From Actinomycetota bacterium (GTDB taxonomy: Bacteria; Actinomycetota; Actinomycetes; Nanopelagicales; Nanopelagicaceae): a DNA stretch of 64,000 nucleotides. Both the position numbers and the translations under genes were made by a program. The notes under the pieces are model-generated. The model had not been told where the DNA came from, searched no databases, and was given only the letters and a program-made list of their open reading frames with translations. The stretch lies in contig CANFVU010000002.1 of NCBI GenBank assembly GCA_947450545.1, forward strand, positions 15,266-79,265, written 5' to 3'. This document shows positions 986 through 63,370 of this stretch, piece after piece. Within the stretch, counting starts at the first letter, position 1. Every line of letters begins with the position of its first letter.

Positions 986-1983
986 CGGCCGCTCTTTCCA
1001 GATTTCGCGACAATCACGTCAGCAATTGAGTTCACGATCAGAGTCACAAGGAACAAAATCAATCCGGCAGCCATAAGTGCTTTAATTTCAAGCGGAGTAG
1101 CTTCACCGAACTTCATCAAAATCATCGATGCGACGTTGCCACCTGCGCCGAGCAATACATGCCAGTTAATTTGATAAACAATGTTGAGTACGGTGTAAAC
1201 AGCAACGGTTTCACCCATCGCGCGGCCCAAGCCAAGCATCGCTCCGCCAACAATTCCTGAGCGCGCATATGGAAACGCAACTGCGCGAATCATTCCCCAA
1301 CGAGTCGAACCAAGAGCATATGCGGCTTGAATTCGATCGAGTGGAGTTTGTCCAAAGATTTCGCGAGAAATCGATGTGACGATAGGAATAATCATGATGG
1401 ATAAAACAACACCGGCAACGAATGGTGAACGATCAAAAACCGGTGCTTGCATGTTGAAGAATGGGATCCAGCCAAAGAATTTATGAAGCAGCTTTGCCCA
1501 GTAAACAGCGCTCGGCATCAAAACGAAGAATCCCCACAAACCATAAAGAATGGATGGGAAAGCGGCCATGAGATCGACGAGAGTTACCATGATCTTTTTA
1601 ATAGATGAAGGCGCGTAGAACGTTAAAAAGAGCGCCGTGAAAACAGAAATTGGAACGGCAATTGAGACGGCAATCGTCGAGCAAACCAGAGTTCCGATAA
1701 GCATTGCAGCAATTCCGAAATGCGATTGAGAAGGAACGGGAACGTTGTTGTCATCAACAACGGCGTTCCAATCACTCGTCGATATGAAATGAAAACCTTG
1801 TGATTGCAAAATTGAGAAGCCCTGATAAAGAAGAAAGATGAAGATCATTCCCAAAATAATGAGCGAAGATAATCCGCCACTCGTTACAACGGTGCGAAAA
1901 ACCTTGTCAGAAAATCTGGGCTTTGTCGTTAACTGTCGCTTCGCGGGCAGGGCCGGGCGCTCGGTTACTTGGGATGAACTCAC
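982..1983 (-). CDS. pstC: Phosphate ABC transporter permease PstC
   Basis: The ORF-track product is a multi-TM ABC permease (FPSILYGLWGFFVL, ALGSTRWGMIRAVAFPYARSGIVGG) directly upstream of pstA. The track start (TTG at 2025) lies inside the predicted -10 box. I prefer GTG at 1981-1983, which has AAGGGGGAG 9 nt upstream. The maximal ORF is 982..2025. Confidence 0.85.
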   Translation of the reverse strand: MSSSQVTERPALPAKRQLTTKPRFSDKVFRTVVTSGGLSSLIILGMIFIFLLYQGFSILQSQGFHFISTSDWNAVVDDNNVPVPSQSHFGIAAMLIGTLVCSTIAVSIAVPISVFTALFLTFYAPSSIKKIMVTLVDLMAAFPSILYGLWGFFVLMPSAVYWAKLLHKFFGWIPFFNMQAPVFDRSPFVAGVVLSIMIIPIVTSISREIFGQTPLDRIQAAYALGSTRWGMIRAVAFPYARSGIVGGAMLGLGRAMGETVAVYTVLNIVYQINWHVLLGAGGNVASMILMKFGEATPLEIKALMAAGLILFLVTLIVNSIADVIVAKSGKSGR

Positions 1984-2024
1984 GCACGGATACTCCCCCT
2001 TTTCGGGGGTTGTTAGTTGGCTCA

Positions 2025-2055
2025 AAAGTAAACGGAAGGTGAACGAATGGTGAAA
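2025..2055 (-). promoter_or_regulatory. PHO-box-like direct repeats overlapping a sigma70-type promoter for pstCA
   Basis: Two contiguous 11-nt direct repeats lie on the minus strand: TTTCACCATTC (2055-2045) and GTTCACCTTCC (2044-2034). Both carry the (G/T)TTCACC core described for actinobacterial PhoP boxes. TTCACC (2054-2049) can serve as the -35, followed by an 18-nt spacer and a -10 TACTTT (2030-2025). Confidence 0.5.
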
Positions 2056-2083
2056 TAAGGTCGAGACGGCTTAAGGTGGGGCT

Positions 2084-2638
2084 ATGGCAAACGAGGCTCC
2101 CAACCTGATCTGGGTTGACTGCGAAATGACGGGCTTGAGCATCGAAAACGATGCGCTGGTCGAAATCGCTGTCCTCGTTACCGATTCACAATTAAATGTC
2201 TTGGGTGAAGGCGTTGACCTTGTCATCAAAACAACCCAAGAGAAGCTCGATGCGATGAATGATTTCGTCCGCGAAATGCACACCTCGTCAGGTCTCATCA
2301 CAGAGATCCCTAACGGCGTCTCTCTCGAAGAAGCATCAACCAAGATTCTTGAATACCTCAATAAATATGCGCCTGGCGCTGGTAAATCACCGCTGGCTGG
2401 AAACTCTGTTTATGTTGATCGCCTCTTCATTGCCCGCGATCTTCCTGAAGTCCATGCCTATCTTCATTACCGAACCGTTGATGTCTCATCCATTAAAGAG
2501 CTTGCTCGACGGTGGTATCCACGTGCCTATTTCGCAGCGCCAAAGAAGACCGGCAATCACCGCGCTCTTGGCGATATTCGGGATTCCATCGATGAGTTGG
2601 ACTACTACCGCGCTCAGATTTTCGTTCCGGCGCCCTAG
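2084..2638 (+). CDS. orn: Oligoribonuclease
   Basis: 184 aa. It has the DEDDh exonuclease pattern NLIWVDCEMTGL ... GNSVYVDRLFI ... HRALGDIRDSIDEL. AAGGTGGGG lies upstream of the ATG. Confidence 0.9.
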   Translation: MANEAPNLIWVDCEMTGLSIENDALVEIAVLVTDSQLNVLGEGVDLVIKTTQEKLDAMNDFVREMHTSSGLITEIPNGVSLEEASTKILEYLNKYAPGAGKSPLAGNSVYVDRLFIARDLPEVHAYLHYRTVDVSSIKELARRWYPRAYFAAPKKTGNHRALGDIRDSIDELDYYRAQIFVPAP

Positions 2639-2674
2639 TTCTGTCCCGTATAATTAGCCTTTCCAGTGCAACAT

Positions 2675-2751
2675 GGTGGTCGTAGCTCAGCTGGTAGAGC
2701 ATCCGGTTGTGGTCCGGAATGTCGCGGGTTCGAGCCCCGTCGATCACCCCA
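2675..2751 (+). tRNA. tRNA-His (anticodon GTG), with encoded G-1 and CCA
   Basis: A hand-folded cloverleaf. The acceptor is GTGGTCG/CGATCAC with an extra 5' G. The anticodon stem is TCCGG/CCGGA with loop TTGTGGT. The T-arm is GGGTTCGAGCCCC. The discriminator is C, followed by CCA. Confidence 0.9.
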
Positions 2752-2792
2752 ATTTTTAACGCAGATCTCTGCGTCTATTTAAGGGAGTTCGA

Positions 2793-3287
2793 ATGCCTCA
2801 CATGATTTTCGATGTTGTCATCGAAATCCCTGCCGGAAGTCGCAACAAATACGAGATCGATCACAAGACCGGTGAAATTCGCCTTGATCGCATGCTCTTC
2901 ACATCAACTCGTTATCCCTATGACTACGGCTTTGTAAAGAACAGCCTCTCACTTGATGGCGATCCACTTGATGCACTTGTCCTTCTTGATGAGCCAACAT
3001 TCCCTGGTTGTGTTGTGAGCTGTCGCGTTGTCGGCATGTATCACATGCAAGATGAAGCTGGCGGAGATGACAAACTTCTCTGTGTTGCAGCGGGAGATAT
3101 TCGTAAGAATGATTTACAAGATCTCGATGACGTTGCTGAATACGATCTCAATGAAATCAGCCACTTCTTCCAGGTCTACAAAGCTCTTGAGCCAGGAAAG
3201 AAAGTTTTCGGCGGCGAATGGGTTGGCCACGTTGCAGCTGAAAATGAAATCAACGCAAGCTACGCACGTTACAAAGAAACACATTAG
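2793..3287 (+). CDS. ppa: Inorganic pyrophosphatase (family I)
   Basis: 164 aa with IEIPAGSRNKYE, YPYDYGF and DGDPLDALVL motifs of soluble PPase. Confidence 0.92.
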   Translation: MPHMIFDVVIEIPAGSRNKYEIDHKTGEIRLDRMLFTSTRYPYDYGFVKNSLSLDGDPLDALVLLDEPTFPGCVVSCRVVGMYHMQDEAGGDDKLLCVAAGDIRKNDLQDLDDVAEYDLNEISHFFQVYKALEPGKKVFGGEWVGHVAAENEINASYARYKETH

Positions 3288-5101: not shown

Positions 5102-5187
5102 AATCCTCTGTGGCATTTGCTTGCATGGAACTTTGGTGAGGGCTGTGCCGATGTTGCGTCAAACCCTTTAAAACTAGAATATTGAAC

Positions 5188-5718
5188 TCAACCCTTAGAT
5201 GACACCGGAATCACGATTTCGTTGTACTGCATGAAGCCAGGTTTAAATGGCGGATCAAATCGACAGATTCGGGTTTCGTCAGAGAGTGCAATGTTGGCTA
5301 TCGATGCACTTAAGCGAAGCTCCTCAGCAATCTTTCGTGATAGTTCTTCGGTTGCTCTGCCGCGGAATGATTTAGCAACGCATCTTTCGGTACCTACTTC
5401 GCGCAATGTGACGTTCGAATCGCTGGGGTCTGGCAAGTGACCAAAGGTGCTGCCTGATGGCATTACAAAGGAGACATACCAATCATTGGATTCCGGCTTC
5501 TCTGTTTTTTGCGCGGCTATTACGGGGGCAGTCATTGCGATTTTTTCTGAGGACTTATTTCCCTTTGAAATGTAATTGAATAACGAAGCGAAAGCGCTGC
5601 TTGTTGCGCTTGAATACTGAGCATAAACTTTCACCTCTGCAATGACGCAAGGGAGATATTCACGAAGCTCAAATTCATCATACTTTTGTAGAAGATAAAA
5701 TTCTTGCCGCTTAGTCAT
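5188..5718 (-). CDS. SOUL/HEBP heme-binding family protein
   Basis: 176 aa. The N-terminal YDEFELREYLPCVIAEVKV and the overall length and pattern resemble the SOUL heme-binding fold. No signal peptide is seen. Confidence 0.6.
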   Translation of the reverse strand: MTKRQEFYLLQKYDEFELREYLPCVIAEVKVYAQYSSATSSAFASLFNYISKGNKSSEKIAMTAPVIAAQKTEKPESNDWYVSFVMPSGSTFGHLPDPSDSNVTLREVGTERCVAKSFRGRATEELSRKIAEELRLSASIANIALSDETRICRFDPPFKPGFMQYNEIVIPVSSKG

Positions 5719-5855
5719 AAATCCAGCCTACTCTTACATGGCGCTCGATTAGTCGCAGTTTTATCAAGAAATGTTGTTGCTCAAATGTGCTGTAAGAATT
5801 AGGCCGTATAGCCTCGAAAACGAATTTTGCTGACTCTTCTTAAAGTGGCTACTAA

Positions 5856-5999
5856 TTATTTTGTGGGTGCTGGGGATGCCATTGTTTCGTTAGAGCTTGA
5901 GTTTCCAATTACTTTTACTTCTGGAGCTTTTGAACCGCAAGAGCTCAGCAGGAGCGCCGAAAGCACTCCTACAGCAGCAATGGCCACGATTTTCTTCAT
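5856..5999 (-). CDS. Small putative lipoprotein (47 aa), below the ORF-track size cutoff
   Basis: My translation is MKKIVAIAAVGVLSALLLSSCGSKAPEVKVIGNSSSNETMASPAPTK. It has a basic N-terminus, a hydrophobic core and a lipobox-like LSSC. Its ATG lies 2 nt after the stop of the upstream 335-aa gene (TAGATATG), which suggests coupling. Confidence 0.4.
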   Translation of the reverse strand: MKKIVAIAAVGVLSALLLSSCGSKAPEVKVIGNSSSNETMASPAPTK

Positions 6000-6001
6000 A
6001 T

Positions 6002-7009
6002 CTATGACCGCGCACAACCCTTTGCCGAATTACTCCACTCGGTCTGAACAGAGTATGCGCCAACTTTTGTTGATCCGTAATTCCATGAACACTTGTCGCC
6101 AATTTCGGCGCCATTAGCATCGAACCAAGCATTTAATTGTGGGTCTGTAATGGTTTCGTAAATTTCATGGCTTGCAACGTTAGCAACTGCATCTACACCA
6201 GAGATTGTTGATCCAACTGTGTAGCCAGCCATATAGCTTGCAGCACAACCAGCCATCGTTCCTAGGTATGGCTGATATGCGATTGTGAATGGCTTGCCAT
6301 TAACAGAACCGGCACCGTGCCATGCGCAGAAGTTTGCACGAGCTGGGAAATTATTTGTGAAAACCATATACAAGCCTGCTGGGTCCATCGTTCCACCGTT
6401 TTGAGTAACAACTACTTTGTATGCCTCAGCAAGAATTGAAGCAGTTGTAGGTGCAGAAGTTGGTGGAGTCGATGTTGTGTCCGTGTAACTGCGAACGAAA
6501 GACATAGCGTTTTTCGCAGGTGAGACAAAGTATTGGTTGGTTACGCTATTAAGAGCATTTGATGGAGATGAAATTACTCCAAGATAGGAATCTACGGCTG
6601 CCTGGTATCCCGCTGGGAATCCTGTGCCCCAATAGATAGCAACAATTTTTGTCACTGGCATTGGGTTGCCTGTGTGTTTTGTGAGGTTCAAAACTGTTGT
6701 GGCTGGTCGTGGTGCAGCAGCATTGGATACACGAGTCTCAAAGACGCGTGAACCTGTGATTGCAACGCCGGTGATTCCACCATCTTGAGCGTCATAGTCG
6801 CGCTGATCTGCATCACTGCCGATTGTGCGAGAAGGATTACCAAAGCGAACTTCTGGACCTTTTTCACCTTGTTTTGCTTGCGCAGGTGCATCAGATTGTC
6901 CGTTCGCGTTCTTTTGCGCTGGGTTATCAGCGAGAGCGACGAAGCTGGTTCCGGAAAATGCAATTGCAGTAAGTGCAATGGCGAGCTTTCCTCGTGTTCT
7001 CTTTAGCAT
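6002..7009 (-). CDS. Secreted protein with PHI-1/EXORDIUM-like pattern
   Basis: 335 aa. The signal peptide is MLKRTRGKLAIALTAIAFSGTSFVALA, and AGGAGG lies upstream. Blocks IVAIYWGTGFP...YQAAVDSYL, LYMVFTNNF...FCAWHG, GCAASY and SGVDAVANVASHEIYETITDP run parallel to conserved blocks of plant EXORDIUM/phosphate-induced protein 1, as I remember them. Confidence 0.4.
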   Translation of the reverse strand: MLKRTRGKLAIALTAIAFSGTSFVALADNPAQKNANGQSDAPAQAKQGEKGPEVRFGNPSRTIGSDADQRDYDAQDGGITGVAITGSRVFETRVSNAAAPRPATTVLNLTKHTGNPMPVTKIVAIYWGTGFPAGYQAAVDSYLGVISSPSNALNSVTNQYFVSPAKNAMSFVRSYTDTTSTPPTSAPTTASILAEAYKVVVTQNGGTMDPAGLYMVFTNNFPARANFCAWHGAGSVNGKPFTIAYQPYLGTMAGCAASYMAGYTVGSTISGVDAVANVASHEIYETITDPQLNAWFDANGAEIGDKCSWNYGSTKVGAYSVQTEWSNSAKGCARS

Positions 7010-7078
7010 TCTGCCTCCTGAGCAGTTGTGAAGGATGCGATGGTATCAGCGCTTCCTGAGTCCTTCAGTGTGGTCATT

Positions 7079-8824
7079 TTATTCACTTTGTCTCTTCATT
7101 GAAAGTGTGAAGATCGCTCCACCCTCGCTTTGTGCTTGTAAATCCCAGTTCTCTCCCCCGATGGAATCAAAGGTCTGGCTGCCCATTCCTTCTGCTCCTT
7201 CAAGAGGTCCAACTCCGTTATCGCTGACGCTCAGTATGAGACGATCTTTTGCGGCTTTGAGCGAGATCGTCACTTGGCTGGCTTTGCCATGACGAAAAGA
7301 ATTCGAAAGTGCTTCATCGAGAACTTGAGCCAACTTTTTGGTTTCTGAAGGCGTAGTCGTTTTTACTGTGCCAGTGACAGAGCTCTTTACTTTCATGAGC
7401 CCATCCCAATTTTGTTTGGCACTTCGCAAAGTTGAGTCGAGTGAATGTTCAGGTTCTTGATGGTCGATTGACCCTGGAAGATGAAGTAATTCCTGCACTT
7501 TTGCTAACTCTAATCGAATGGCGTCAACATCCCCACGTGCAGTCGCACGGTCAATAACGTTGGCGGAGTTGATTAACGCGGTCTGCATATTGGTGTGGAG
7601 GAAGCGTGCAAGGTCGCGGCTAGCTCCGGAATTGGCAACTTTTGCACCGGCGACCGCGAGCTCTTCATCTGTAATGATGGACTTCAAGCTCTCAATAACT
7701 GCTTCTTCACGCGTAAAAACAGTGATTGTCGTGCTTACGAAATAAACCAAAAAGAGAATCCACACAATATCGGTTATACGATTTGCCAAAAGATCCACAC
7801 GCAATTGAAGAATTTTATAGATCCAATTTACAACGAGGTCATTGATAATCAAGACTAAAATTGTGAAGAGAAATTTTGGATATAGCTTACGAATCTTAAA
7901 TTTGTTTATACAGAGTTCTGATAGGTAGAGAATCGCTGCGAGAACCAAGAGATGAAATGTGAATCGCTCGATGGAGTCTGGAAAATAATCACGCTTAAAA
8001 AAAGAAGGTAAGGCCGTAATTGCATATCCGATAACAATGGCACCCCGGAAAATAGTCATATTCAAGATGCCCCATTTGATAGCGCTTCGAATTCGATGCG
8101 CTCCAATTCCCTGTGCGCGTGGATCAAAAAGTGAGTGACTGAGAGGACGGATTGATGTACTTGTACGATTTCTCAGATAATTTGCAATTTGCATGCCATC
8201 GATAGCACGACCGCTCGCAATCAATTCTTGAAGAACAGCCCTTGTTTCAGCAAGGTCTTTTTCAATACGTGCGTTGATGCGGCCATCAACAATTCCATCA
8301 GGCAACGTTGTCGCTTCATCTACTGCCGCAGCGAGAGTGTTCTGCGAAAGTGCTTGGCGCAACAGCTTGTTTCGTTGAATTGAGTATCTGTCGTAGCCAG
8401 CAATGAGAAAAGTGATGATTGGGAAAAGGCAAGCACCGATTAAGAAATTGTTGCCTATGCGCTTTTCCATGTCGGTACTAAACGGCTCGGTGAGCAAACC
8501 CCATTTATAGCCAACATACGTCATCAAATAACCCTTGATTCCTCCCAAAATCCCTCCAATTACGAGGATCCACCACCAAGGGCGGGGTCGAATCGAGCGG
8601 TGACGGTAGAGCGAGATGCTCAACAAGGCAAGAAGCCCGATGGGCGGGAGGGCTGAAATCGAAGATACTAATGTCCAACGCGCGAAAGGGAAATCAGAAG
8701 CTCCAACTGAATTTCCTAAAGGAGCGGCGAGAATAACCCAAGGTAAAGCTATCAATGAGCCTCTCAACGACATTGCCCACTTGCCGCCTAAAAGGTAATC
8801 GAGTTGCTTCCGATTTGTATTCAT
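7079..8824 (-). CDS. Membrane sensor histidine kinase (atypical, two TM blocks)
   Basis: 581 aa. The C-terminus is GHKL-like (EALSNSFRHG ... LILSVSDNGVGP ... GMGSQ). Candidate phospho-His sites are IRPLSHSLF, between the two multi-TM blocks, or ARFLHTNMQTAL. It overlaps the response-regulator stop by 4 nt. Confidence 0.7.
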   Translation of the reverse strand: MNTNRKQLDYLLGGKWAMSLRGSLIALPWVILAAPLGNSVGASDFPFARWTLVSSISALPPIGLLALLSISLYRHRSIRPRPWWWILVIGGILGGIKGYLMTYVGYKWGLLTEPFSTDMEKRIGNNFLIGACLFPIITFLIAGYDRYSIQRNKLLRQALSQNTLAAAVDEATTLPDGIVDGRINARIEKDLAETRAVLQELIASGRAIDGMQIANYLRNRTSTSIRPLSHSLFDPRAQGIGAHRIRSAIKWGILNMTIFRGAIVIGYAITALPSFFKRDYFPDSIERFTFHLLVLAAILYLSELCINKFKIRKLYPKFLFTILVLIINDLVVNWIYKILQLRVDLLANRITDIVWILFLVYFVSTTITVFTREEAVIESLKSIITDEELAVAGAKVANSGASRDLARFLHTNMQTALINSANVIDRATARGDVDAIRLELAKVQELLHLPGSIDHQEPEHSLDSTLRSAKQNWDGLMKVKSSVTGTVKTTTPSETKKLAQVLDEALSNSFRHGKASQVTISLKAAKDRLILSVSDNGVGPLEGAEGMGSQTFDSIGGENWDLQAQSEGGAIFTLSMKRQSE

Positions 8825-53703: not shown

Positions 53704-54309
53704 ATGAGTACCGACGCAAAGAACCGCCTACCTCGCGATGAGCGACGTGCCCAACTCTTGAACGCTGCCCTTGAGGTCTTTACTCAAGCTGGTTATCACT
53801 CTGCACCGATGGATGAAATTGCCGATCGAGCAAGTGTGAGCAAGCCTGTTCTCTACCAACATTTTCCTTCCAAACTTGATCTCTATCTAGCAGTACTCGA
53901 TCTTCATATTGATTCACTTCTCTTTGACATTCAAAAAGCAGTTGCATCAAAGAGCGATAATGGCGATCGCGTCGATGCAACAGTTGCCGCTTATTTTGAT
54001 TTCATCAATCACGAAGGCGAAGCATTTAGACTGCTCTTTGAAAGCGATATGGCAATTGAGCCAAAAGTTCGTGAACGTCTCACGCGCATGACATATGACT
54101 GTGCCGCGGCTTTTTCTGCAGTTATCTCACTCGAAACTGGCATGAGTAAAGAAGTCTCGATGATGCTCGCGACGGGTTTGATTGGCAATGTTCAATCAGC
54201 CGCACGTCATTGGTTAGAGCGCGATCAGAAAATTTCTCGTGATGAAGCAGTGAAACTTATCTCAGGCCAAATATGGCGAGGCATTTCTGGTTTTCCCCGT
54301 CATGAATAA
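53704..54309 (+). CDS. TetR/AcrR-family transcriptional regulator
   Basis: The HTH is [42 protein letters not shown] prefer the start at MSTDAKN (53704). Confidence 0.85.
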
Positions 54310-54325
54310 CGAGTAAACTTCACAC

Positions 54326-54580
54326 ATGGCAACTAAGAAAAGTGAAACTCAAAATACTGATGTACGTATTGGCATCAGTGACTCCCCAACCGATTTACGT
54401 ATCGAAACTGCTTTAACGTCGGACCAAGTCCTTGCTCTCGTTGAAGCTGCTCTCAAAGGTGGATCACATTTGGTTATCACCGACACCAAGAATATGAAGA
54501 CTCTTGTGCCAGCGGCCAAGATTGCTTTCGTTGAATTCGGCAGCGCTCCTGAGCGCCGCGTCGGTTTCACAACTCTTTAA
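54326..54580 (+). CDS. DUF3107-family protein
   Basis: 84 aa. DVRIGISDSPTDLRIET...LVITDTKNMKTLVPAAKIAFVEFGS matches the conserved actinobacterial DUF3107 pattern that follows a TetR gene. Confidence 0.75.
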   Translation: MATKKSETQNTDVRIGISDSPTDLRIETALTSDQVLALVEAALKGGSHLVITDTKNMKTLVPAAKIAFVEFGSAPERRVGFTTL

Positions 54581-55422
54581 GCGCGCACGACTCTTCGAGC
54601 GTCCGCTCTGGCCTCTAAAGCCAGCCACTGATCGATTTCCGTCGTATTTTCAGCGAGTTCATTGATCTTTCCACTGCCGTGATAATCGCTTGAACCGGTT
54701 CGCAGGACTCCTAAGTCATTGGCTATCTGCGTCAGTAAAACTCTTTGATCTGCTGTGTGATCGCGATGGAATACTTCAATTCCATCTAATCCTGCATCGA
54801 CAAAAGATGTGAAACTCTCCACCGATACAGTTCGTCCACGAAGAGATGCCATGGGATGAGCAATGACAGCGACTCCGCCCGCAGCCTTAATTAACTCAAT
54901 CGCACGTTCTGGAGTTGGCGAATAATGTGCCACGTAATACGGAGAATTATTGTGGAGCCACTTCTCAAATATTTCATCGCGGCTCTTCGCTAAACCTTTT
55001 GCAACCATTGCATCTGCTAAATGTGGACGACCCAAAGTTGCACCTTCTGAGAGTTGTGCAAGAACTTCCTCCATGCTGATTTCGATTCCCGCATCATTCA
55101 TTCGAACAATAATTCTTTCCATGCGACCATAACGATTGTCGCGCGTTTGAGCTAAGACATCTTGGAGCTCTTGATTTCCTCGATCGAACAGCAACCCGAG
55201 CATATGGACGCTGATTCCATCTTCTGTCTGGCAAGATATTTCAGATCCGAGAACTAAATCCATACCCGGGCGAAGGTGAGCGGATGCTTCATCCCATCCC
55301 GCAATGCTGTCGTGATCGGTGAGAGCTAAAATTTTTATTCCAGATGCCAGAGCTTTATTGATGAGCTCCGAAGGTGAATCCGTTCCATCGCTGACATTTG
55401 TGTGGGTGTGGAGATCAATCAT
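54577..55422 (-). CDS. PHP-domain metal-dependent phosphoesterase (TrpH/YciV-like)
   Basis: MIDLHTHTNVSDGTDSP, ALTDHDS and the C-terminal GSSDYHG are present. I prefer the start at 55422, which overlaps the EamA stop by 4 nt. Confidence 0.8.
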   Translation of the reverse strand: MIDLHTHTNVSDGTDSPSELINKALASGIKILALTDHDSIAGWDEASAHLRPGMDLVLGSEISCQTEDGISVHMLGLLFDRGNQELQDVLAQTRDNRYGRMERIIVRMNDAGIEISMEEVLAQLSEGATLGRPHLADAMVAKGLAKSRDEIFEKWLHNNSPYYVAHYSPTPERAIELIKAAGGVAVIAHPMASLRGRTVSVESFTSFVDAGLDGIEVFHRDHTADQRVLLTQIANDLGVLRTGSSDYHGSGKINELAENTTEIDQWLALEARADARRVVRA

Positions 55423-56306
55423 TTCTTTCCGCCAAGAACAAAAATTATGCAACCAGTCAATATTCCAATAATTCCGATCCAAAGCCCGCCTGAAGGAACT
55501 TGTCCCAACCACTTCCACGCCACGATCCCTGCAACAGGAATTTCATAAAAGACAATCATGGAGACCACTACGGGAGAAACTCTCTTTAAAACCACGTTCA
55601 TCAAAGTGTGCCCCATGAATTGAGCGCCGATGATCAAGAGAGCAAGAATGACCCACTCTCCCGCTGAAAAGTGAAGGAAATTCATCCCTCCCAATGCAAT
55701 TACAGGGAGCACAGTGAGAGCACATGCCCCGTAACAGACGTTTGTATATGTGGCGGTAGCTAACTCTCTTTGGACTTGTGAACCTATTTGTAAATAGGTT
55801 GCTGAAAGAACGGCGCATACCAAACCAAAAAGGTCGCCATAGAAAGCGCGTAATGAGAGCGAGAAGTCCACACCTGTTATTACTAACACTGATGCGAATG
55901 CAATAAACATGCCGACAAAAGAGAACGTTGAAATATGTTGTCCTCGGGAGCGAACATAAATAGCTGCGAAAATGGGTTGTAGCGAAGCGAGAGCGGTTCC
56001 AGCAGCAACAGAAGTAAATCGCATCGCAAGAAAGAAAGTAATAAAGTGGAAAGAGAGGAAAACTCCAGCAAGCGCGGAACGGGCAATCAATTTCCGCTTT
56101 GTAGAATCTTTGAAATCTCCTGTGCGAAGTGCAAAGGGAAGCATGATCATTGAGCCAATAAAGTTTCGCCAGAAAACTAAAACAGGAACCGGCATGGTGC
56201 TCTTTGCAATGAGCGGACCGGAAGTTCCTACGCCAATAATTCCAAGAAGCAGATAGGGAATATCTCGACCTTTAGGAAGAGCTGCGTGATCGTGATGTTT
56301 TGTCAC
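55419..56306 (-). CDS. EamA/DMT-family transporter
   Basis: 295 aa with 10 TM segments in two EamA-like halves. The GTG start overlaps the NRAMP stop (GTGA). Confidence 0.75.
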   Translation of the reverse strand: MTKHHDHAALPKGRDIPYLLLGIIGVGTSGPLIAKSTMPVPVLVFWRNFIGSMIMLPFALRTGDFKDSTKRKLIARSALAGVFLSFHFITFFLAMRFTSVAAGTALASLQPIFAAIYVRSRGQHISTFSFVGMFIAFASVLVITGVDFSLSLRAFYGDLFGLVCAVLSATYLQIGSQVQRELATATYTNVCYGACALTVLPVIALGGMNFLHFSAGEWVILALLIIGAQFMGHTLMNVVLKRVSPVVVSMIVFYEIPVAGIVAWKWLGQVPSGGLWIGIIGILTGCIIFVLGGKK

Positions 56307-57538
56307 GGATGTACGGTAAACCAGAGAAGAGCGATGACACAGATTGCGACCAGCGAAATAATAATTCCATAAACAAAACGCATTCTTTGCGTTGAAGCGA
56401 ATTCACCCATCAATCGAGTATCGCGAGAAATTCCATACATAAAGAAGAGCAGAGGCAACAATAAAATCGCGTTGAGAATCTGCGTTAATACGAGAACACG
56501 AATGAGTGGAACACCCGGTAGCAAAATAAGTCCCGCAGCAAAGAGCGTCATGAAACCAAACGTTGCATAGAAGAGTGGCGCATCTTTAGGACCGTCATCG
56601 AGAGCAGCTGGTTGCCCAGTGAGATCCCCAACGGAATAAGCTGTCGATAGAGGCAAAATGGATGCTGCAAGAAGTGCTGCACCGACTAAACCGATAGCAA
56701 AGAGAGCTTTAGCGAGCGTGCCAGCAAGAGGTTCGAGCGCTTTCGCTGCTTGAGAAGCATCGGTGATGTTGGTCTGGCCTTCTTTATTGAGCGTCGCTGC
56801 GCATGTGACGATAACGAAAAAGCCAATGATCCCTGTGAGCAGTGAACCGGTCCACACATCAACGCGAAGAAGCTTCAAATCATCGCGCGTTAAACGCTTA
56901 TCGACTGCATACGATTGAATGAAAGCTAAGCCCCACGGTGCCAACGTTGTTCCCAGCGTCGCTGTGGCAATGTAAATCGCATCGTGATTGAAGGGCATTG
57001 AAGGCACAACAACTCCGTGAAGTGCTTTACCCCAATTGGGATGTGCCATAAATCCAGCAACGACATATGCAATAAAGACTGCAGAGAGCGCGAAGAAAAC
57101 TTTTTCAACGCGAGCAAAAGAACCGCGAAGCACTAAGAATGAAACGACAAGTGCAGCGGCCGGCACAGTAAGAAAACGGGAGTACCCAAAGAGCTGACCA
57201 GCTGCTGCGATACCTGCAAACTCTGCAGTCAACGTTCCGAAATTTGCGACGAGCAGCGCAACGGCGCTGAGCGTTCCAGAGCGAGCTCCATACTTTTGAC
57301 GGACTAACCCAATTAAACCTTGACGCGTTACAACACCGATTCGTGCACCTAAATCCTGAAAAAGGACAAGAGCGATAGTTGAGATAACGAGTACCCACAA
57401 CATTTGGTAAGCAAACTTCGCGCCCAACTGAGAGTACGTAGTGATACCGGCTGGATCATCATCAGAAAGTCCTGCAATAACTCCAGGCCCCATGACGGAA
57501 AGAAGCGCGCCAATTCGAATTTTGCGTTGCGTGGTCAT
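56303..57538 (-). CDS. NRAMP/SLC11-family transporter with non-canonical metal site (possible NRMT-type Mg2+ transporter)
   Basis: 411 aa with 11 TM segments. The TM1 motif reads GLSDDDPAGITTYS where canonical NRAMPs have DPGN. The TM6 motif reads GTTLAPWGLAFIQS where canonical NRAMPs have A..MPHNLYLHS. Confidence 0.75.
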   Translation of the reverse strand: MTTQRKIRIGALLSVMGPGVIAGLSDDDPAGITTYSQLGAKFAYQMLWVLVISTIALVLFQDLGARIGVVTRQGLIGLVRQKYGARSGTLSAVALLVANFGTLTAEFAGIAAAGQLFGYSRFLTVPAAALVVSFLVLRGSFARVEKVFFALSAVFIAYVVAGFMAHPNWGKALHGVVVPSMPFNHDAIYIATATLGTTLAPWGLAFIQSYAVDKRLTRDDLKLLRVDVWTGSLLTGIIGFFVIVTCAATLNKEGQTNITDASQAAKALEPLAGTLAKALFAIGLVGAALLAASILPLSTAYSVGDLTGQPAALDDGPKDAPLFYATFGFMTLFAAGLILLPGVPLIRVLVLTQILNAILLLPLLFFMYGISRDTRLMGEFASTQRMRFVYGIIISLVAICVIALLWFTVHP

Positions 57539-58872
57539 TAGAGAGCACCCGTTCCTTTTGAAAGTCCGTGTTGCTCTTCTGGTTTGAGTGCATCAACCAA
57601 GTCATCGGCAAGAATACGTCCTACAGGTTTTCCCTTTTCGTCGATGACGACAATCGAAGCTCCTCGGTTATTCGAGAATTCTTCAATAACTTCTTCGAGA
57701 GGTGAATCAATATTGACCGCAGTTGGGTATGGAGGTCCAATGAGAGTCGCCAGCAAATCTGAAGATTTTGCAGCAACTAACTCGATGATTTGAATGTGAT
57801 CGCGCAATTTACCTTTGGCATCGACGATGACAACTCCGTCGGAGATATCTCGATCGCGGCTTTCTACGAGTGCTTTAAGCGCTGAGGAGACCGTATCTTC
57901 TTCATGGGCAATGACCATATGCGTGGTCATAATTCCGCCTGCAAGAGTTTCATCAAATGAAATCAATTGGCGAAGTTGCTTTGCCATCTTGGTATCCATG
58001 GCTTTCAAAATATCTTCACGGTGTTCATCATCCAAGTCACGCAGAACTTCAGCAGATTCATCTGGTTCCATGCGACTGAGGAGTTCGGCAGCGCGATCTT
58101 CAGACATACCGCGGAGCAAACCTTGGAGTTCGTCGTCTTCCATTTCCTCAAGTGCGTCAGCAGCAAGCTCAGGGTCCAACATTTCAATCAGAGCGCTTTG
58201 TTCCCGGCCAGCTAAGTCTTCAATCAAGTCAGCAAGGTCTGCAGGACGAAGTTGTGAAAGCGCAGTTTTTGAGCCAGAAGTTTTTACAACACCTGAAGTA
58301 TCAGCAAGCGACGCAACTGTGGACCAATCCAAAACATGTTGAGGAGTTGCGCGACGGCCGAGAGCACCTGGAAAGATACGGCGCAAGAAAGTAACAAAGG
58401 AAATATCTACACCAACAACGCGAATTTCTTTATCGAGTGGGGCAAGATAAAGGTCAGATGAGCGAACAACTCGAAGGCCATTCACATCAACAATTTGGTG
58501 ATCCAAAACATCGCCATCAAGAAGTGACTCACCTTCACGTCGTTGGTAATCCGTAAGGTTGATAGTGGTCGATGAAAGGCGAATTTCATTGTGCGTCAGT
58601 TTTGCAATACGTGCGCCATCAATAAATGATTTACGTTGCCCAACTTTGACAATCAACCCTGATACTGGCGGATATGCATCGTGGCCATGTCGCACAACAA
58701 CATCTACAAGACGACCAATGTCGCGACCATCTTCATTTCGAACTGGGCAGCCAATCAAACCGGCGAGAGATACAAGTGAGTCCCGAATGCTCTTGCGCGC
58801 AAGAACGCGATCGACTTTTGTGTTCGATTGGGTTGCCACCTTGGCGGTTGCGAGCTTCGGTGACTTTTGCAT
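57538..58872 (-). CDS. Soluble PRC-barrel + MgtE N-terminal domain + CBS-pair protein (no membrane domain)
   Basis: 444 aa. It has a PRC-like segment VRNEDGRDIGRLVDVVV and an acidic MgtE_N-like helical segment (LADLIEDL...EMLDPELAADALEEMEDDEL...AELLSRMEPDESAEVL). Two CBS-like repeats follow. Its stop overlaps the NRAMP start (TAATG). Confidence 0.7.
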   Translation of the reverse strand: MQKSPKLATAKVATQSNTKVDRVLARKSIRDSLVSLAGLIGCPVRNEDGRDIGRLVDVVVRHGHDAYPPVSGLIVKVGQRKSFIDGARIAKLTHNEIRLSSTTINLTDYQRREGESLLDGDVLDHQIVDVNGLRVVRSSDLYLAPLDKEIRVVGVDISFVTFLRRIFPGALGRRATPQHVLDWSTVASLADTSGVVKTSGSKTALSQLRPADLADLIEDLAGREQSALIEMLDPELAADALEEMEDDELQGLLRGMSEDRAAELLSRMEPDESAEVLRDLDDEHREDILKAMDTKMAKQLRQLISFDETLAGGIMTTHMVIAHEEDTVSSALKALVESRDRDISDGVVIVDAKGKLRDHIQIIELVAAKSSDLLATLIGPPYPTAVNIDSPLEEVIEEFSNNRGASIVVIDEKGKPVGRILADDLVDALKPEEQHGLSKGTGAL

Positions 58873-58893
58873 GGGTAAATCTTACGTGCAGGA

Positions 58894-60021
58894 TCAGGTA
58901 TGAAGCGAAAGGGGCACTCCCACTAGCGAGCGGCGCTGCTTCATCAACTGATCAACAATTGAATATATGGCAACGGCTGCATGACTTTCTGGCGCTGAGA
59001 GCACTATTGGCTGGCCATCATCGCCTCCAACACGGAGGGCAGGGTCGAATGGGACGCTACCTAATAGAGAAACATCTGCTCCAACGAGAGTGGATAGGCG
59101 TCGCGCAGTTTCTGCGCCGCCTCCTGAGCCAAAGAGAGAGATTGATTCGCCGCACTTTGGACAATTGATATCAGACATATTTTCTACAACGCCGACAATA
59201 TGTTGCTTCAATTGATGAGCAATACGTCCTGCGCGTTCTGCAACTTCAGCAGCGGCAATTTGTGGAGTTGTGACAACTAAAATTTCTGATGCTGGAATCA
59301 ATTGACCCAAGCTAATTGCAATATCGCCAGTTCCAGGTGGAAGATCAAGAAGAAGTAAATCTAAATCTCCCCAGTATGCATCGCTCAATAGTTGCTCAAG
59401 CACTCTATGCAAAAGTGGTCCGCGGTAAGCAACAGGATCTGCTCGGTCAGGCTTGAACATCTCCATCGACACAACTTTGACTCCATTGCTTTCCAATGGA
59501 ATAAATGTTTGATCGATTGCAGTTGGGCGTTGACCCACAAGATTCATCAATCGAGGAACGGAGTGTCCATAAACATCGGCATCCAAGATTCCAACTTTGA
59601 GACCTCGTTTTGCTGCAGCAACCGCGAGATTGACGGTAAGAGAAGATTTACCGACTCCCCCTTTGCCAGAGGCAATGCCAATAACGCGTGTTAACGAATC
59701 AGGTTGGGCAAAAGGAATGAATTTTTCAACGCCACCGTGAAGTAATTTCTTCACGTTGTTGCGCTGCTCTTCATTCATCACGCCAAATTCAAGTTCTACC
59801 TTTGCAATCTCTTCGATGCGGGCAAGAGCTGCTTCAACATCGTTCTTTAATCGATCGCGCATTGGACAACCTGAAATAGTGAGAAGCACTTTGATGCTGG
59901 CAACTCCGCCGTTGAAAGCGACGCTTTCAATCATTCCTAAATCAGGAAGAGGTCTGCGTAATTCAGGATCTGAGACTGTCGCTAATTCAGCATGAATACG
60001 TTCAATAATTGTCTGTGTCAT
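58894..60021 (-). CDS. mrp: Mrp/ApbC Fe-S cluster carrier ATPase
   Basis: 375 aa. It has an N-terminal DUF59-like domain, the motif IASGKGGVGKSSLTVNLA and a CPKCG motif. Confidence 0.9.
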   Translation of the reverse strand: MTQTIIERIHAELATVSDPELRRPLPDLGMIESVAFNGGVASIKVLLTISGCPMRDRLKNDVEAALARIEEIAKVELEFGVMNEEQRNNVKKLLHGGVEKFIPFAQPDSLTRVIGIASGKGGVGKSSLTVNLAVAAAKRGLKVGILDADVYGHSVPRLMNLVGQRPTAIDQTFIPLESNGVKVVSMEMFKPDRADPVAYRGPLLHRVLEQLLSDAYWGDLDLLLLDLPPGTGDIAISLGQLIPASEILVVTTPQIAAAEVAERAGRIAHQLKQHIVGVVENMSDINCPKCGESISLFGSGGGAETARRLSTLVGADVSLLGSVPFDPALRVGGDDGQPIVLSAPESHAAVAIYSIVDQLMKQRRSLVGVPLSLHT

Positions 60022-60335
60022 AGGAGGTCAGGATCAATCTGAGCTTTCTTCTTATCGAGCGTGAGCCCGGTGTTGAGCTCAGATGTGATGTCATCCAAGG
60101 AATTTCCAAGCGTTTTCTTAATAAGTTTCTTTGGATGAAGATCAGTTACCTGCAAATCTTCAAAGCCAGGTCCTAAATTTTCTCGAAGCTCTGCAGTTGC
60201 TGCATTCGCAATTCCGCGAAGTCGTTTCACAAGCTTTGCAGCATCTGTTGCAACATGTGGAAGTCGATCAGGGCCAATGAGAAAAAGCGCCAAGACAAGA
60301 AGAGTGAGAAACTCACCAGCGCCGATACCGAACAT
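60018..60335 (-). CDS. tatB: Twin-arginine translocase subunit TatB/TatA-family
   Basis: 105 aa. The N-terminus MFGIGAGEFLTLLVLALFLIGPDRLP is followed by an amphipathic helix. It is coupled to mrp. Confidence 0.8.
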   Translation of the reverse strand: MFGIGAGEFLTLLVLALFLIGPDRLPHVATDAAKLVKRLRGIANAATAELRENLGPGFEDLQVTDLHPKKLIKKTLGNSLDDITSELNTGLTLDKKKAQIDPDLL

Positions 60336-60360
60336 AGAGAAAGCCTACCGCTTGCTGGCC

Positions 60361-60969
60361 TTACGACTTAGTGGCGAGCAGCACACCTTGGCCGATAGGA
60401 AGGAGCGTAGATGTCCAACGAGAATCTTCTTTTACGAAACGGATTCCGTCGCGTCGAGAGATACTTTCAAAATCGCGTTGGGTGGGGTCAGCGACTTTAC
60501 CTCCGCTAAGAGCATGATCGATGAAGAGTGTGCCACCAGAGCGCAGTAAGCGATGGGCTTCTTGAACAAAATCCATTAGATCTGCGGCAGGGCGCACAAC
60601 AACTAAATCATAATTTCCGTCAGCAAGCTTGCTTACTACTTCCAAAATATTTCCTGTTATCAATCGATATCTCGCAGCGGCAATGCCGTTTTCATCGAAA
60701 GAATCTCGGGCACTCGCTGAATGTTCGCGTTCAGTGTCGATAGAAGTTAAAACTCCATCTTTTGGCATGCCTTGGAAGAGCCACAAACCGCTTACGCCAG
60801 AGCCTGTACCGATTTCAACAACTGATTTTGCGTTGAGAGATTTAGCTACATACTGAAGCAGTGCTCCCACCGCAGGCGATGGATCGCTTGCACCCATTTC
60901 AACGCCATTCGCGCGCGCTTGCTGTAAATGAATTTCTTCGCGTGCAAAAGATTCTGAGTATGCAGTCAT
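60361..60969 (-). CDS. Class I SAM-dependent O-methyltransferase (caffeoyl-CoA OMT-like)
   Basis: The SAM motif VVEIGTGSGVSGLWL is present, with a DxD-type metal-site context. I prefer the start at MTAYSES (60969), which avoids overlapping pepA. The track ORF extends to 61008. Confidence 0.75.
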   Translation of the reverse strand: MTAYSESFAREEIHLQQARANGVEMGASDPSPAVGALLQYVAKSLNAKSVVEIGTGSGVSGLWLFQGMPKDGVLTSIDTEREHSASARDSFDENGIAAARYRLITGNILEVVSKLADGNYDLVVVRPAADLMDFVQEAHRLLRSGGTLFIDHALSGGKVADPTQRDFESISRRDGIRFVKEDSRWTSTLLPIGQGVLLATKS

Positions 60970-60989
60970 ATCACCGCGGTTGTGAAGCG

Positions 60990-62489
60990 TCATAGTGAAG
61001 CAATCCATTCAATAAGAAGGCGTGGTCCAAATCCAGTTCCACCTTTGACAAATTCACCGGCATCAACATCTGAGCGGCCAGTACCTGCAATATCCAAATG
61101 AACCCAATTTCTCTTACCTACAAACTTTTCAAGGAAGAGCGCTGCAGTAATTGATCCCCCGCTGAAATGACCCTTTGATGCGATATGACTTACATCAGCA
61201 ATATCGCTCTCGAGGCCAGGTGAATAATCATCGACCAGTGGCATATGCCAAACGCGATCACCACTTGCGATACCAGCTTCAAAGAGTTTCTTTGCGAGTT
61301 TCTTATCGCGTGTGTACATCGCTGCGTAGTGACGACCAAGTCCCAACGTTGCAGCACCTGTAAGAGTTGCAACATCAATTAAATAATCAGGATTGAGTTC
61401 GAGATTTGCATATCCGAGTCCATCCGCGAGAACGAGGCGACCTTCTGCATCGGTATCAAGAACTTCCACAGTGGTGCCGTCATATTGAGTGATGACATCA
61501 GATGGGCGCTGTGACGTGCCAGAAAGAGCGTTTTCAGCGCACATCATCAAGGCAGTTACACGCACTTTTGGTTTGATATCTGGCATCGCCATAACAGTTG
61601 ATAACACTGCAGCAGCTCCCGCCATATCGCTTTTCATTGCAGTCATGATGTCGTAGGGGCGCTTTAAAGAAACTCCGCCAGTATCGAATGTGATTCCTTT
61701 TCCAACCAAGACGACAAGCGGCCATCTGCTTGAACCTTTGGGTGCATATGAAATTTCAATCATTCGAGGACCTGGGTTAGGTGAAGATCCGCCGACTGCA
61801 CGCAACCCACCAAATTTATCGAGCTCTCGACCGGAGAGAACTTTGACAGCAATACCGTTCTTCTTCGCTGCGATTGATTTTGCTTGCGTTGCGAGCCATG
61901 CCGGAGTTTTAATATTTGAAGGCGTATGAATTAAATCCCGAGCTGTGTAAATCGCATCGACCAGAACTCTTGCTTTCTCCATCTCGGCAGAAAAATCGCC
62001 AAAGAAAGTTATAGTGCAAGTCTTTTTAGAAGTAGATTTCTTGTCGGTCTTTAAACTCCATACATATTGCGAAAGAGAGAGCGCAACTGCGCAAGCTGTG
62101 ACATTCTCGCGCTTCGCAATCATGCCATTGAGAATATGAAAACCAGTGCCTTTAACTTTTCTACCAAGCGAAGCTCCTGCTTTACGAAGATCATCGCGGC
62201 TCTCTGAACCAACACCGACAAGATAGATGCGTGCAATTCCATCGTCAGCACCAACAGGCAGCTCGATAATTTCTCCTGCTTTTCCAGTGAAGTCAGGCCA
62301 CAAAGAAATTTCTGTTGCAAGATTGACGCCAAAGCGATCGACGACAGATTTGCTGACAGCGTTGGTGAGCGCAACAGGGCCATCCTCCGTGAGTTTTACT
62401 CCGATAGCGATAGCGTCGAGACCATTCCAGGTCGCGAGGAGTTTAGAATCATCGCTAGAGGCAAGTACGGGAGAGATGGCTTTTTTCAC
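60990..62489 (-). CDS. pepA: Leucyl aminopeptidase (M17)
   Basis: 499 aa. VGKGITFDTGG, DMAGAAAV and the DTDAEGRLVLAD motifs are present. Confidence 0.92.
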   Translation of the reverse strand: MKKAISPVLASSDDSKLLATWNGLDAIAIGVKLTEDGPVALTNAVSKSVVDRFGVNLATEISLWPDFTGKAGEIIELPVGADDGIARIYLVGVGSESRDDLRKAGASLGRKVKGTGFHILNGMIAKRENVTACAVALSLSQYVWSLKTDKKSTSKKTCTITFFGDFSAEMEKARVLVDAIYTARDLIHTPSNIKTPAWLATQAKSIAAKKNGIAVKVLSGRELDKFGGLRAVGGSSPNPGPRMIEISYAPKGSSRWPLVVLVGKGITFDTGGVSLKRPYDIMTAMKSDMAGAAAVLSTVMAMPDIKPKVRVTALMMCAENALSGTSQRPSDVITQYDGTTVEVLDTDAEGRLVLADGLGYANLELNPDYLIDVATLTGAATLGLGRHYAAMYTRDKKLAKKLFEAGIASGDRVWHMPLVDDYSPGLESDIADVSHIASKGHFSGGSITAALFLEKFVGKRNWVHLDIAGTGRSDVDAGEFVKGGTGFGPRLLIEWIASL

Positions 62490-62509
62490 ATCTCCGAACT
62501 TAACGAATT

Positions 62510-63370
62510 ATGGAGGTGAATGTGAACTGGATGGACCCCGTGTGGCGCGATTGGTTGCTCACGTGGCCTCTTCTCCTCTTTTTCTTCGCAATCGGACAAG
62601 AACTTCGAATTGAAGCATCGCGGCATACTGATCGACGTCACCTCATCGCACCTATCGCTGCCGCTGCAGGCGGGATGCTGATTCCTGCGCTCACATATCT
62701 TGCACTCTCACATTTCACAGATGCACCTCGCGAAGCATGGGGTATTCCGATGGCAACTGACCTGCCTTTTGTGCTGATTGCCCTCGCTCTCTTCCCAACC
62801 CGGATTCAAAAGCGGCTACGCATCTTTCTCTTAACGTTGGCTATCGCCGATGACATCGGCTCAATTCTCGTATTAGGTGTTGTGACTTCTTCCCAAGGTG
62901 GAATTCACCCAACAATTCTCGGCACGATTCTTGGACTTGCATGGGGCGCTCGAGGTTATGCAATAATGAAAAAAATTGCGTACTACTTTATTTTGCCAAT
63001 CTTTTTGGCTGCTAGTTTCTCAACGACATTTATTTTTACATGGAATTCGATAAGCAACCCACTTGTCTGGCAATTAATCGTTGCCCGAATCGTTGGCAAG
63101 CCAATTGGTATCGCATTAGGGGCTCTTCTTGGTTACGTGTTACTGCGCATGGCACACGAGCATGCGATGAGATTGAAACTTCGAGAATTGATCATCGCTG
63201 GTTTGATTGCCACATTTGGACTTGATGTAGCTTTGATCTTTGCAAACGTTGCTTTGCACAGCCCAGCAGAAAAATCTTTAGCAATTATGGGAATTGTGCT
63301 GACTATTCCAGTTTCAATAGTCGGAGTGTTTTTTGCTCGTTACTTTTTAACGAGAGCAACAGCCGCCTGA
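62510..63370 (+). CDS. Shortened NhaA-like Na+/H+ antiporter homologue (possibly decaying)
   Basis: 286 aa against about 390 aa for canonical NhaA. Conserved blocks FFFAIGQELRIE, GIPMATDLPF, LAIADDIGSILVL and IVGKPIGI are present. The first ~58 aa (TM I-II) and a ~40-aa segment after the DD motif have no counterpart here. An in-frame stop lies at 62501-62503. Confidence 0.55.
   Translation: MEVNVNWMDPVWRDWLLTWPLLLFFFAIGQELRIEASRHTDRRHLIAPIAAAAGGMLIPALTYLALSHFTDAPREAWGIPMATDLPFVLIALALFPTRIQKRLRIFLLTLAIADDIGSILVLGVVTSSQGGIHPTILGTILGLAWGARGYAIMKKIAYYFILPIFLAASFSTTFIFTWNSISNPLVWQLIVARIVGKPIGIALGALLGYVLLRMAHEHAMRLKLRELIIAGLIATFGLDVALIFANVALHSPAEKSLAIMGIVLTIPVSIVGVFFARYFLTRATAA

Follow-up and report, generated by a model that had tools for sequence, protein, structure and literature searches.

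NRAMP-related Mg2+ transporters (NRMTs), a distant clade of SLC11, make up the fourth class of Mg2+ importers in bacteria. They are not proton-coupled; thus, the question at issue is how cells avoid overloading through these proteins. A locus that bears on this question lies on the minus strand of a 64,000-nucleotide stretch of DNA from an actinobacterium of the family Nanopelagicaceae (contig CANFVU010000002.1, positions 15,266 to 79,265; the whole stretch is hereafter called the window, and coordinates are counted from its first nucleotide). The locus comprises a gene for a 411-amino acid NRMT-type protein of the SLC11/Nramp family (56303-57538) and, directly upstream, a gene for a 444-amino acid soluble protein with PRC-barrel-like, MgtE_N, and CBS domains (57538-58872), hereafter called the partner. 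It is proposed, with a probability of roughly 55%, that this overlapping pair constitutes a divalent-cation uptake unit in which the NRMT serves as the carrier for Mg2+ and Mn2+ while a cytosolic, MgtE-type sensor throttles it in trans.

The closest described systems are the "mgtE-nramp operons" of Shin, Wakeman et al. (PLoS Genet 2014, PMC4072509), who named the transporter NrmT and found that most NrmT genes adjoin a gene encoding an MgtE N-terminal domain. NrmT was first delimited by the M-box riboswitch, though members without a riboswitch were also included. It was proposed that the partner exerts cytoplasmic feedback regulation in trans or, alternatively, acts as a metal chaperone, and the Clostridium transporters did not need the partner open reading frame (ORF) for Mg2+ rescue (PMC4072509). 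The window shares the layout of these operons, with a gene for an MgtE cytoplasmic domain directly upstream of the NRMT gene, and invites the same idea of regulation in trans. However, it lacks an M-box, its transporter belongs to a subclade distinguished by the motifs DDDPAG and TTLAPWG, and its genes form a longer overlapping string (tatB, mrp, partner, NRMT, EamA, and PHP). Moreover, Shin et al. call the partner small, whereas a PRC/middle extension of roughly 200 residues, undescribed there, is found here throughout the family. In the later literature searched (the EleNRMT study of 2022, Cellier 2022, and a 2026 review), the partner has not been taken up. The initial annotation of the window regarded the pairing as not characterised. 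This holds for its function, but the pairing itself was recognised, and the idea of a trans-acting sensor published, in 2014. What goes beyond that description is the DDDPAG/TTLAPWG subclade, the PRC/middle extension, a map of kept and lost MgtE sites, partners without CBS domains, and a pairing with the DUF1003 family.

Related systems illuminate each component. EleNRMT carries Mg2+ and Mn2+, but not Ca2+, without H+ coupling, and its residue T224 is needed for interaction with Mg2+ (PMC8806188). This protein was studied alone: neither "CBS" nor "operon" occurs in the paper, and a partner gene is not discussed. MgtE of Thermus thermophilus (TtMgtE; 2YVX/2YVY) has an N domain and a CBS pair of the same fold and order as those of the partner. 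Unlike MgtE, the partner has neither a transmembrane (TM) domain nor a plug helix, has lost the residues of the Mg2/Mg3 and ATP sites, and has gained N-terminal PRC and middle domains; the membrane component in the window, in turn, is separately encoded, has a LeuT fold, and is unrelated to the MgtE pore. The CNNM/CorB/CorC proteins provide a further, general parallel: their Mg2+ transport domain is under the control of a CBS pair to which Mg2+ or nucleotide binds. In those proteins, however, the CBS pair is fused to DUF21 and binds Mg-ATP, whereas the partner is a separate protein that possesses MgtE_N and lacks the ATP-site residues of MgtE.

The transporter and its soluble partner

The two genes meet in a TAATG junction (57536-57540), in which the final base of the partner stop codon TAA is the A of the NRMT start codon ATG. 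The 411-amino acid protein matches Pfam Nramp (PF01566; E 3.4e-81), and its best match among solved structures is EleNRMT (7QIA; E 8.6e-90, 305 bits, 41.6% identity over 399 aligned residues), compared with at most 84 bits for classical Nramps such as DraNramp. The NRMT site is defined by the signature DxxG-TxxA/T, which replaces the DxxN-A/CxxM of canonical Nramps (Ramanadane et al. 2022, PMC8806188). The window transporter carries this signature as D28-P-A-G31, within the TM1 unwound-region motif DDDPAG (residues 26-31; 57446-57463), and as T197-T-L-A200, within the TM6 unwound-region motif TTLAPWG (residues 197-203; 56930-56950). In the alignment to EleNRMT, D28 corresponds to D55 and G31 to G58, the position of the canonical Asn, while T197 corresponds to T224 and A200 to A227, the position of the canonical Met. 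Both motifs, and the replacement of the Asn and Met ligands, are thus exactly as read in the initial annotation.

All residues of EleNRMT that have been tested by mutation (D55, G58, T224, and Q379) are kept in the window transporter as D28, G31, T197, and Q353, so that the two proteins share the complete D/G/T/A/Q site as well as the DxxG-TxxA pattern. They also share the TM3 glutamate (E106) and W229 (W202), and both have lost the two TM6b histidines of the Nramp proton path, which are replaced in the window by W202, at the first His position, and I207. The differences lie around the site: TM1 reads DPAG, with the canonical proline kept, as opposed to DAGG in EleNRMT, and TM6b reads WGLAFI as opposed to WMMFFN.

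In a neighbour-joining tree of 90 sequences other than those of CabNRMT and A. capsulatum, rooted on DraNramp and carrying no support values, the window transporter groups with NRMT-type sequences and not with MntH, as its NRMT-like motifs had led the initial annotation to expect. It falls in a distinct subclade, all members of which have DDDPAGI in TM1 and GTTLAPWG in TM6; the sister groups are of the EleNRMT type (DNDAGGI/GTTIAPWM) and of a Chloroflexi type (GTTITPWG). Judged by sequence, the 411-amino acid protein is an NRMT-type relative of SLC11 without the Asn and Met ligands, and we infer that Mg2+ is the physiological substrate of its subclade.

The partner is matched by Pfam MgtE_N (E 2.7e-23) and, in two stretches, by Pfam CBS (E 1.3e-10). 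The acidic, helical MgtE_N domain occupies residues 199-308 (57949-58278; 31 Asp/Glu versus 12 Lys/Arg per 110 residues), and the CBS pair residues 313-430 (57583-57936). Upstream of them, a PRC-barrel-like domain is assigned to residues 36-118 (58519-58767). Here the Pfam PRC profile (PF05239) scores below its cut-off (19.3 bits, over only 24 residues, versus 21.2), but it matches 21 of 26 diverse members of the partner family (best E 1e-14), and the AlphaFold model is rich in β-strands at residues 43-117, with a predicted local distance difference test (pLDDT) score of about 75-83. No TM segment was found in the partner, whose highest 19-residue Kyte-Doolittle mean is 1.37. The ORF, Pfam, and hydropathy data bear out the soluble MgtE_N/CBS protein described at the outset, with a probable PRC barrel at its N-terminal end.

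Between the PRC barrel and MgtE_N lies a middle region (residues 119-190; 58303-58518) with the motif DxQ(I/V)VDxxGxxVxR.xD ... GVDxS/G ... LRR ... W. An alignment of 26 diverse family members has 14 invariant columns, 6 of them in this region (D124, Q126, D129, R137, R164, and W183). No other stretch of the family is as well conserved; MgtE lacks an equivalent, and the AlphaFold model is of low confidence here.

The kinship of the C-terminal half with MgtE is apparent from both sequence and predicted structure. In a sequence search of the PDB, the TtMgtE cytosolic domain (2yvy) matches residues 197-438 of the partner (E 8.6e-18), and the ten best Foldseek matches of the partner model are MgtE cytosolic domains (8gpv/2yvy; E about 1e-14, target-normalised TM-score 0.65); a CorB CBS structure is found among the weaker matches. 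The protein ends 14 residues past the CBS pair, at the point where the plug helix starts in MgtE, and its score against the NCBIfam mgtE model (86.6) is far under the cut-off of 232.75. Since it possesses neither plug-helix ligands nor a TM segment, it is a homologue of the MgtE sensor domains and not of the MgtE channel.

The Mg2+ sites (PMC5882242) and ATP site (PMC5529423) of MgtE were mapped onto the partner via a HMMER alignment, in which 14 of 14 reference residues were as expected. In TtMgtE, the inter-domain sites are formed by D91/D247 (Mg4), D226/D250 (Mg5), D95 (Mg6), and E59 (Mg7) (PMC5882242). By this alignment, Mg4 is kept as D271/D424, Mg6 as E275, and Mg7 as D239, and one half of Mg5 is kept as D427, the equivalent of D250. 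Of 32 NRMT-linked partners, spanning 24-89% identity, 27-31 carry Asp or Glu at the positions of Mg4, Mg6, and Mg7. As far as alignment and structural model can tell, the partner is homologous to the cytosolic Mg2+ sensor of MgtE but stands alone.

Linkage of the pair in other genomes

A pattern derived from a 13-sequence alignment was scanned against one genome per species and returned at least 598 NRMT-like genes. The 80 with the highest similarity were taken together with their flanks. The ORFs of these loci were searched with custom profiles; 76 loci could be assessed and 4 could not. A partner homologue stands directly upstream, on the same strand, in 44 of the 76, and the start and stop codons of the two genes overlap in at least 12 of these 44. 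The partner is found within 3 kb at two further loci and at 5.6 kb at another, and it is absent from 29 loci with sufficient flank. The linked loci span Actinomycetota, Chloroflexota (including Chloroflexia), Acidobacteriota, Armatimonadota, Patescibacteria, Dormiibacterota, Smithella, and one archaeon of the Methanobacteriaceae. No shared alternative partner was found in the partner-less loci, where the neighbours are unrelated (FemAB, hydrolase, kinase, LPG synthase, OsmC, and RecO). A profile search for distant partners returned nearly exclusively Nanopelagicaceae-type sequences and added no diversity.

The pair also occurs on plasmids. A tblastn search of plasmids placed the partner beside an annotated Nramp in Leifsonia, Alicyclobacillus, Citrobacter, Mycobacterium, and Rhodococcus, and a profile search added a sixth case, pSCL4 of S. 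clavuligerus. Both gene orders are found among the plasmid pairs, and transposases are frequent at their flanks. On the Leifsonia shinshuensis plasmid (L085:2298-6053), the order is reversed, with Nramp followed by the partner and then by an MgtC/SapB gene. On the IncHI1B plasmid of Citrobacter freundii (L087), a reverse-order pair has an ArsR regulator, a heavy-metal P-type ATPase, and a Tn3 transposase as neighbours, a setting which indicates that the module is mobile. Moreover, the distance matrices of partner and transporter are correlated (Mantel r 0.69, 0 of 2000 permutations), which shows co-inheritance of the two genes as a unit, although shared phylogeny contributes as well. The pairing is far beyond chance, and chance adjacency is excluded. 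The gene linkage that the initial annotation proposed to look for in other genomes is therefore present, as is a pairing of the partner family with DUF1003 (see below).

The composition of the module varies. In a series of MAGs (metagenome-assembled genomes) and isolates of Actinomycetota and Mycobacterium (L015, L017-L027, and L037), a short partner of about 280-315 amino acids is encoded directly upstream of the NRMT. In Pfam searches, what remains in these short forms is the PRC barrel, followed by the middle region and an incomplete MgtE_N, and the CBS pair is wholly absent; the middle-region motif is retained, and the genes are start/stop-coupled to NRMTs of the window subclade. In one Microthrixaceae MAG (L021), a single contig has two NRMT modules with some 3 kb between them (456-3098 and 5102-7227): one combines a full-length partner with an EleNRMT-like site (GNDAGGI/GTTITPYM), and the other a short, CBS-less partner with a site of the window type (DDDPAGI/GTTLAPWG). 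In a Candidatus Angelobacter MAG (L068:4284-6887), two NRMT paralogues stand in tandem and the partner gene is absent; TM6 of one paralogue reads GATIAPWM, with Ala in place of the Thr relevant to Mg2+. An 890-amino acid ORF in a Chloroflexia MAG (L082:4558-7230) was considered as a natural fusion of partner and NRMT and rejected, because the last 70 or so residues of its partner lie in another frame (5663-5881), which makes a frameshift, an assembly error, or an open frame in high-GC DNA more likely. Long NRMT ORFs at high-GC loci were likewise attributed to start-codon artefacts.

Riboswitches connect some of these loci to Mg2+. An M-box (RF00380) is located directly ahead of the partner gene in 2 of 11 diverse pair loci, namely in a Dormiibacterota MAG (L070:4545-4713, 127 bits) and an Acidobacteria MAG (L061:4438-4622, 115 bits). 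In the window, neither an M-box nor another cis-regulatory RNA reached the Rfam gathering score, a search of 57400-61200 relaxed to E ≤ 5 found none either, and no M-box was found in eleven loci of the window clade. The M-boxes that precede the pair in relatives, together with the aligned acidic residues at Mg4, Mg6, and Mg7, are consistent with a Mg2+-sensing role of the partner in trans.

Homologues of the partner are also linked to a different membrane protein. On the Nonomuraea gerenzanensis chromosome (L092:3995-7420), a partner-family gene is followed by an overlapping DUF1003 gene (Pfam E 6e-39) and then by Mrp/ApbC; on that of Nocardia farcinica (L089:4001-5925), it is likewise followed by an overlapping DUF1003 gene (Pfam E 1.6e-35). 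These proteins belong to the same family as the window partner and share its domain order and the acidic residues of the Mg sites; in Nonomuraea, the Mrp neighbour is shared as well. They differ in that their membrane partner is a small DUF1003 protein and not an NRMT, their middle-region motif is diverged or partly deleted, and they form a clade of their own. No paper that links DUF1003 to Mg2+ was found in the literature searched. This pairing suggests that DUF1003 might conduct cations and work with a sensor of this type.

Neighbouring genes

Downstream of the NRMT gene are genes for an EamA-family (DMT) membrane protein of 295 amino acids (55419-56306) and a PHP-domain phosphoesterase of 281 amino acids (54577-55422), both on the minus strand. 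The EamA start codon GTG overlaps the NRMT stop codon as GTGA (56306-56303), and the PHP start codon ATG overlaps the EamA stop codon as ATGA (55422-55419), so that these two overlaps of four nucleotides, like the TAATG junction at the start of the 411-amino acid frame, read as initially annotated. A longer, GTG-started ORF was set aside as the PHP gene in favour of the 281-amino acid frame (55422-54577), and the same four genes, of 444, 411, 295, and 281 amino acids, were independently predicted on the source MAG contig. The PHP protein is nearest to the models of 3',5'-nucleoside bisphosphate phosphatase and RNase RNM, with scores under their cut-offs.

Upstream, a minus-strand gene for an Mrp/ApbC Fe-S carrier ATPase (58894-60021) ends 21 nucleotides before the partner gene; a riboswitch and a promoter-like signal were looked for in this gap, and none was found. 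The minus-strand run from 62489 to 54577 comprises leucyl aminopeptidase, an O-methyltransferase, tatB, mrp, the partner, NRMT, EamA, and PHP, separated by tiny gaps or joined by overlaps of four nucleotides, including an ATGA between tatB and mrp. The transcription unit of the locus cannot be delimited, as a scan of 54000-62600 for promoters and terminators gave counts no higher than in shuffled sequences. The order tatB-mrp-partner-NRMT-EamA-PHP is kept in related freshwater actinobacterial MAGs (L006, L009, L010, and L012). EamA and PHP were considered as parts of the module and rejected, as they are found behind NRMT only in close relatives (L005-L012); they are lineage-specific neighbours outside the conserved module.

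A possible mode of regulation and its alternatives

According to the proposed mechanism, the widened, hard-ligand site of the NRMT (D28, G31, T197, A200, and Q353) would accept largely hydrated Mg2+ and also Mn2+. Transport would be driven by the membrane potential and, because both TM6b histidines are replaced, is probably not coupled to H+. On the cytosolic side, Mg2+ bound at the acidic sites of the N/CBS interface (D239, D271, E275, D424, and D427) would switch the partner from a loose to a compact form, as in MgtE; it is the conservation of these inter-domain sites that argues for a retained Mg2+-dependent switch. Because the partner is not covalently attached to a pore, its docking on the transporter would be mediated by the PRC barrel and by the conserved middle region; once cytosolic Mg2+ suffices, the docked protein would throttle uptake. 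The middle region is the best candidate for the docking surface because MgtE lacks it, the short partners retain it, and its motif has diverged in the homologues linked to DUF1003. We infer that the two proteins interact physically and that regulation runs in this direction. As no M-box precedes the operon, such a brake at the protein level would be the sole Mg2+-responsive control detected at the locus.

Several observations weigh against this proposal. In the partner itself, the second Mg5 ligand is lost (D226 is replaced by R403), as are the plug-helix Mg2/Mg3 sites (E258/D259 are replaced by H435/G436), although the latter loss, as aligned, agrees with there being no fused pore. The ATP site also appears to be lost (Y170 to G346, R187 to I363, D188 to E364, N203 to G379, and F227 to G404, in loops whose alignment is uncertain); F227 is essential for ATP binding by MgtE (PMC5529423). 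The AlphaFold model of the partner is good in the MgtE_N and CBS parts but only moderate overall (mean pLDDT 63). Many genomes of the window subclade have no partner or a short form without CBS domains, for which reason the partner has to be regarded as dispensable, and CabNRMT and EleNRMT function without one. No assayed member of the DDDPAG/TTLAPWG subclade was found in the literature. Finally, in the one partner-linked relative that has been examined along with its partner, Acp2977/Acp2976 of A. capsulatum expressed in Bacillus subtilis, the transporter behaved mainly as a Mn2+ importer: it relieved Mn2+ deficiency completely but Mg2+ deficiency only in part, and the added partner had no effect (PMC4072509).

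The rescue of the Mn2+-uptake mutant is the starting point of an alternative in which the pair is mainly an importer of Mn2+ or another transition metal and the partner, which may respond to Mn2+ (PMC4072509), senses this ion and not Mg2+. Such a role would agree with the Mn2+ transport of EleNRMT and with the behaviour of EcoDMT, in which conversion of the site to NRMT residues left Mn2+ transport intact and conferred no Mg2+ transport (PMC8806188), as well as with the lack of M-boxes in the window and its clade and with the co-transcribed PHP enzyme, which belongs to a family of metal-dependent hydrolases. It is nevertheless unlikely, given that the Thr required for Mg2+ in EleNRMT is present as T197 together with G31 and A200, that the acidic, hard-ligand sites of the partner align with Mg2+ sites of MgtE, that relatives are controlled by Mg2+ riboswitches, and that MgtC adjoins one of the plasmid copies. 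A different possibility concerns the partner alone, which could be co-expressed as a cytosolic buffer or chaperone to which the imported cation is passed, as a factor for assembly or stability, or as a sensor that signals to other targets, without gating the transporter. The tight, often overlapping, partner-first order is kept from archaea to Actinobacteria and the partner moves with the transporter on plasmids, which speaks against a non-gating role, and the sole characterised function of MgtE_N with a CBS pair is to gate a Mg2+ pore (PMC5882242, PMC5529423). The chaperone alternative of Shin et al., the rescue unchanged by co-expression (PMC4072509), and the many NRMT genomes that dispense with the partner favour a non-gating role; the short forms do so too, as half of each inter-domain Mg2+ site is gone with the CBS pair. 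That the same family accompanies the unrelated DUF1003 also speaks for it, yet the middle region differs according to which membrane protein it is paired with, as a docking surface should. On balance, a non-gating partner is considered improbable.

A further possibility is that the adjacency has no functional meaning and simply reflects tight packing in a streamlined genome, since the region is a run of overlapping minus-strand genes (tatB/mrp, NRMT/EamA, and EamA/PHP) and since EamA and PHP are no more than lineage-specific neighbours. Recurrence of the pair at 44 of 76 assessable loci, in many phyla and on plasmids, in some cases behind a shared M-box, makes this explanation very unlikely. 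The reading preferred here remains that of an NRMT carrier for Mg2+ and Mn2+ throttled in trans by its partner. A more far-reaching version of it is considered unlikely: the PRC/MgtE_N/CBS protein might be a portable Mg2+ sensor that docks via its PRC barrel and middle region onto either an NRMT or DUF1003, with MgtE as the fused version of the same arrangement, DUF1003 as an unrecognised Mg2+ channel or transporter, and the sensor as the sole feedback on Mg2+ uptake in streamlined freshwater Actinobacteria that have no riboswitch.

An MgtE-like partner has been the obvious candidate for the control of NRMTs since 2014. To this, the locus described here adds an example without a riboswitch from an abundant group of freshwater Actinobacteria, an account of which MgtE sensor sites persist in a separate protein, and a candidate docking region, and together these make the idea of gating in trans directly testable. 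Moreover, the pairing of the same protein family with DUF1003 provides a functional lead for an uncharacterised family of membrane proteins.

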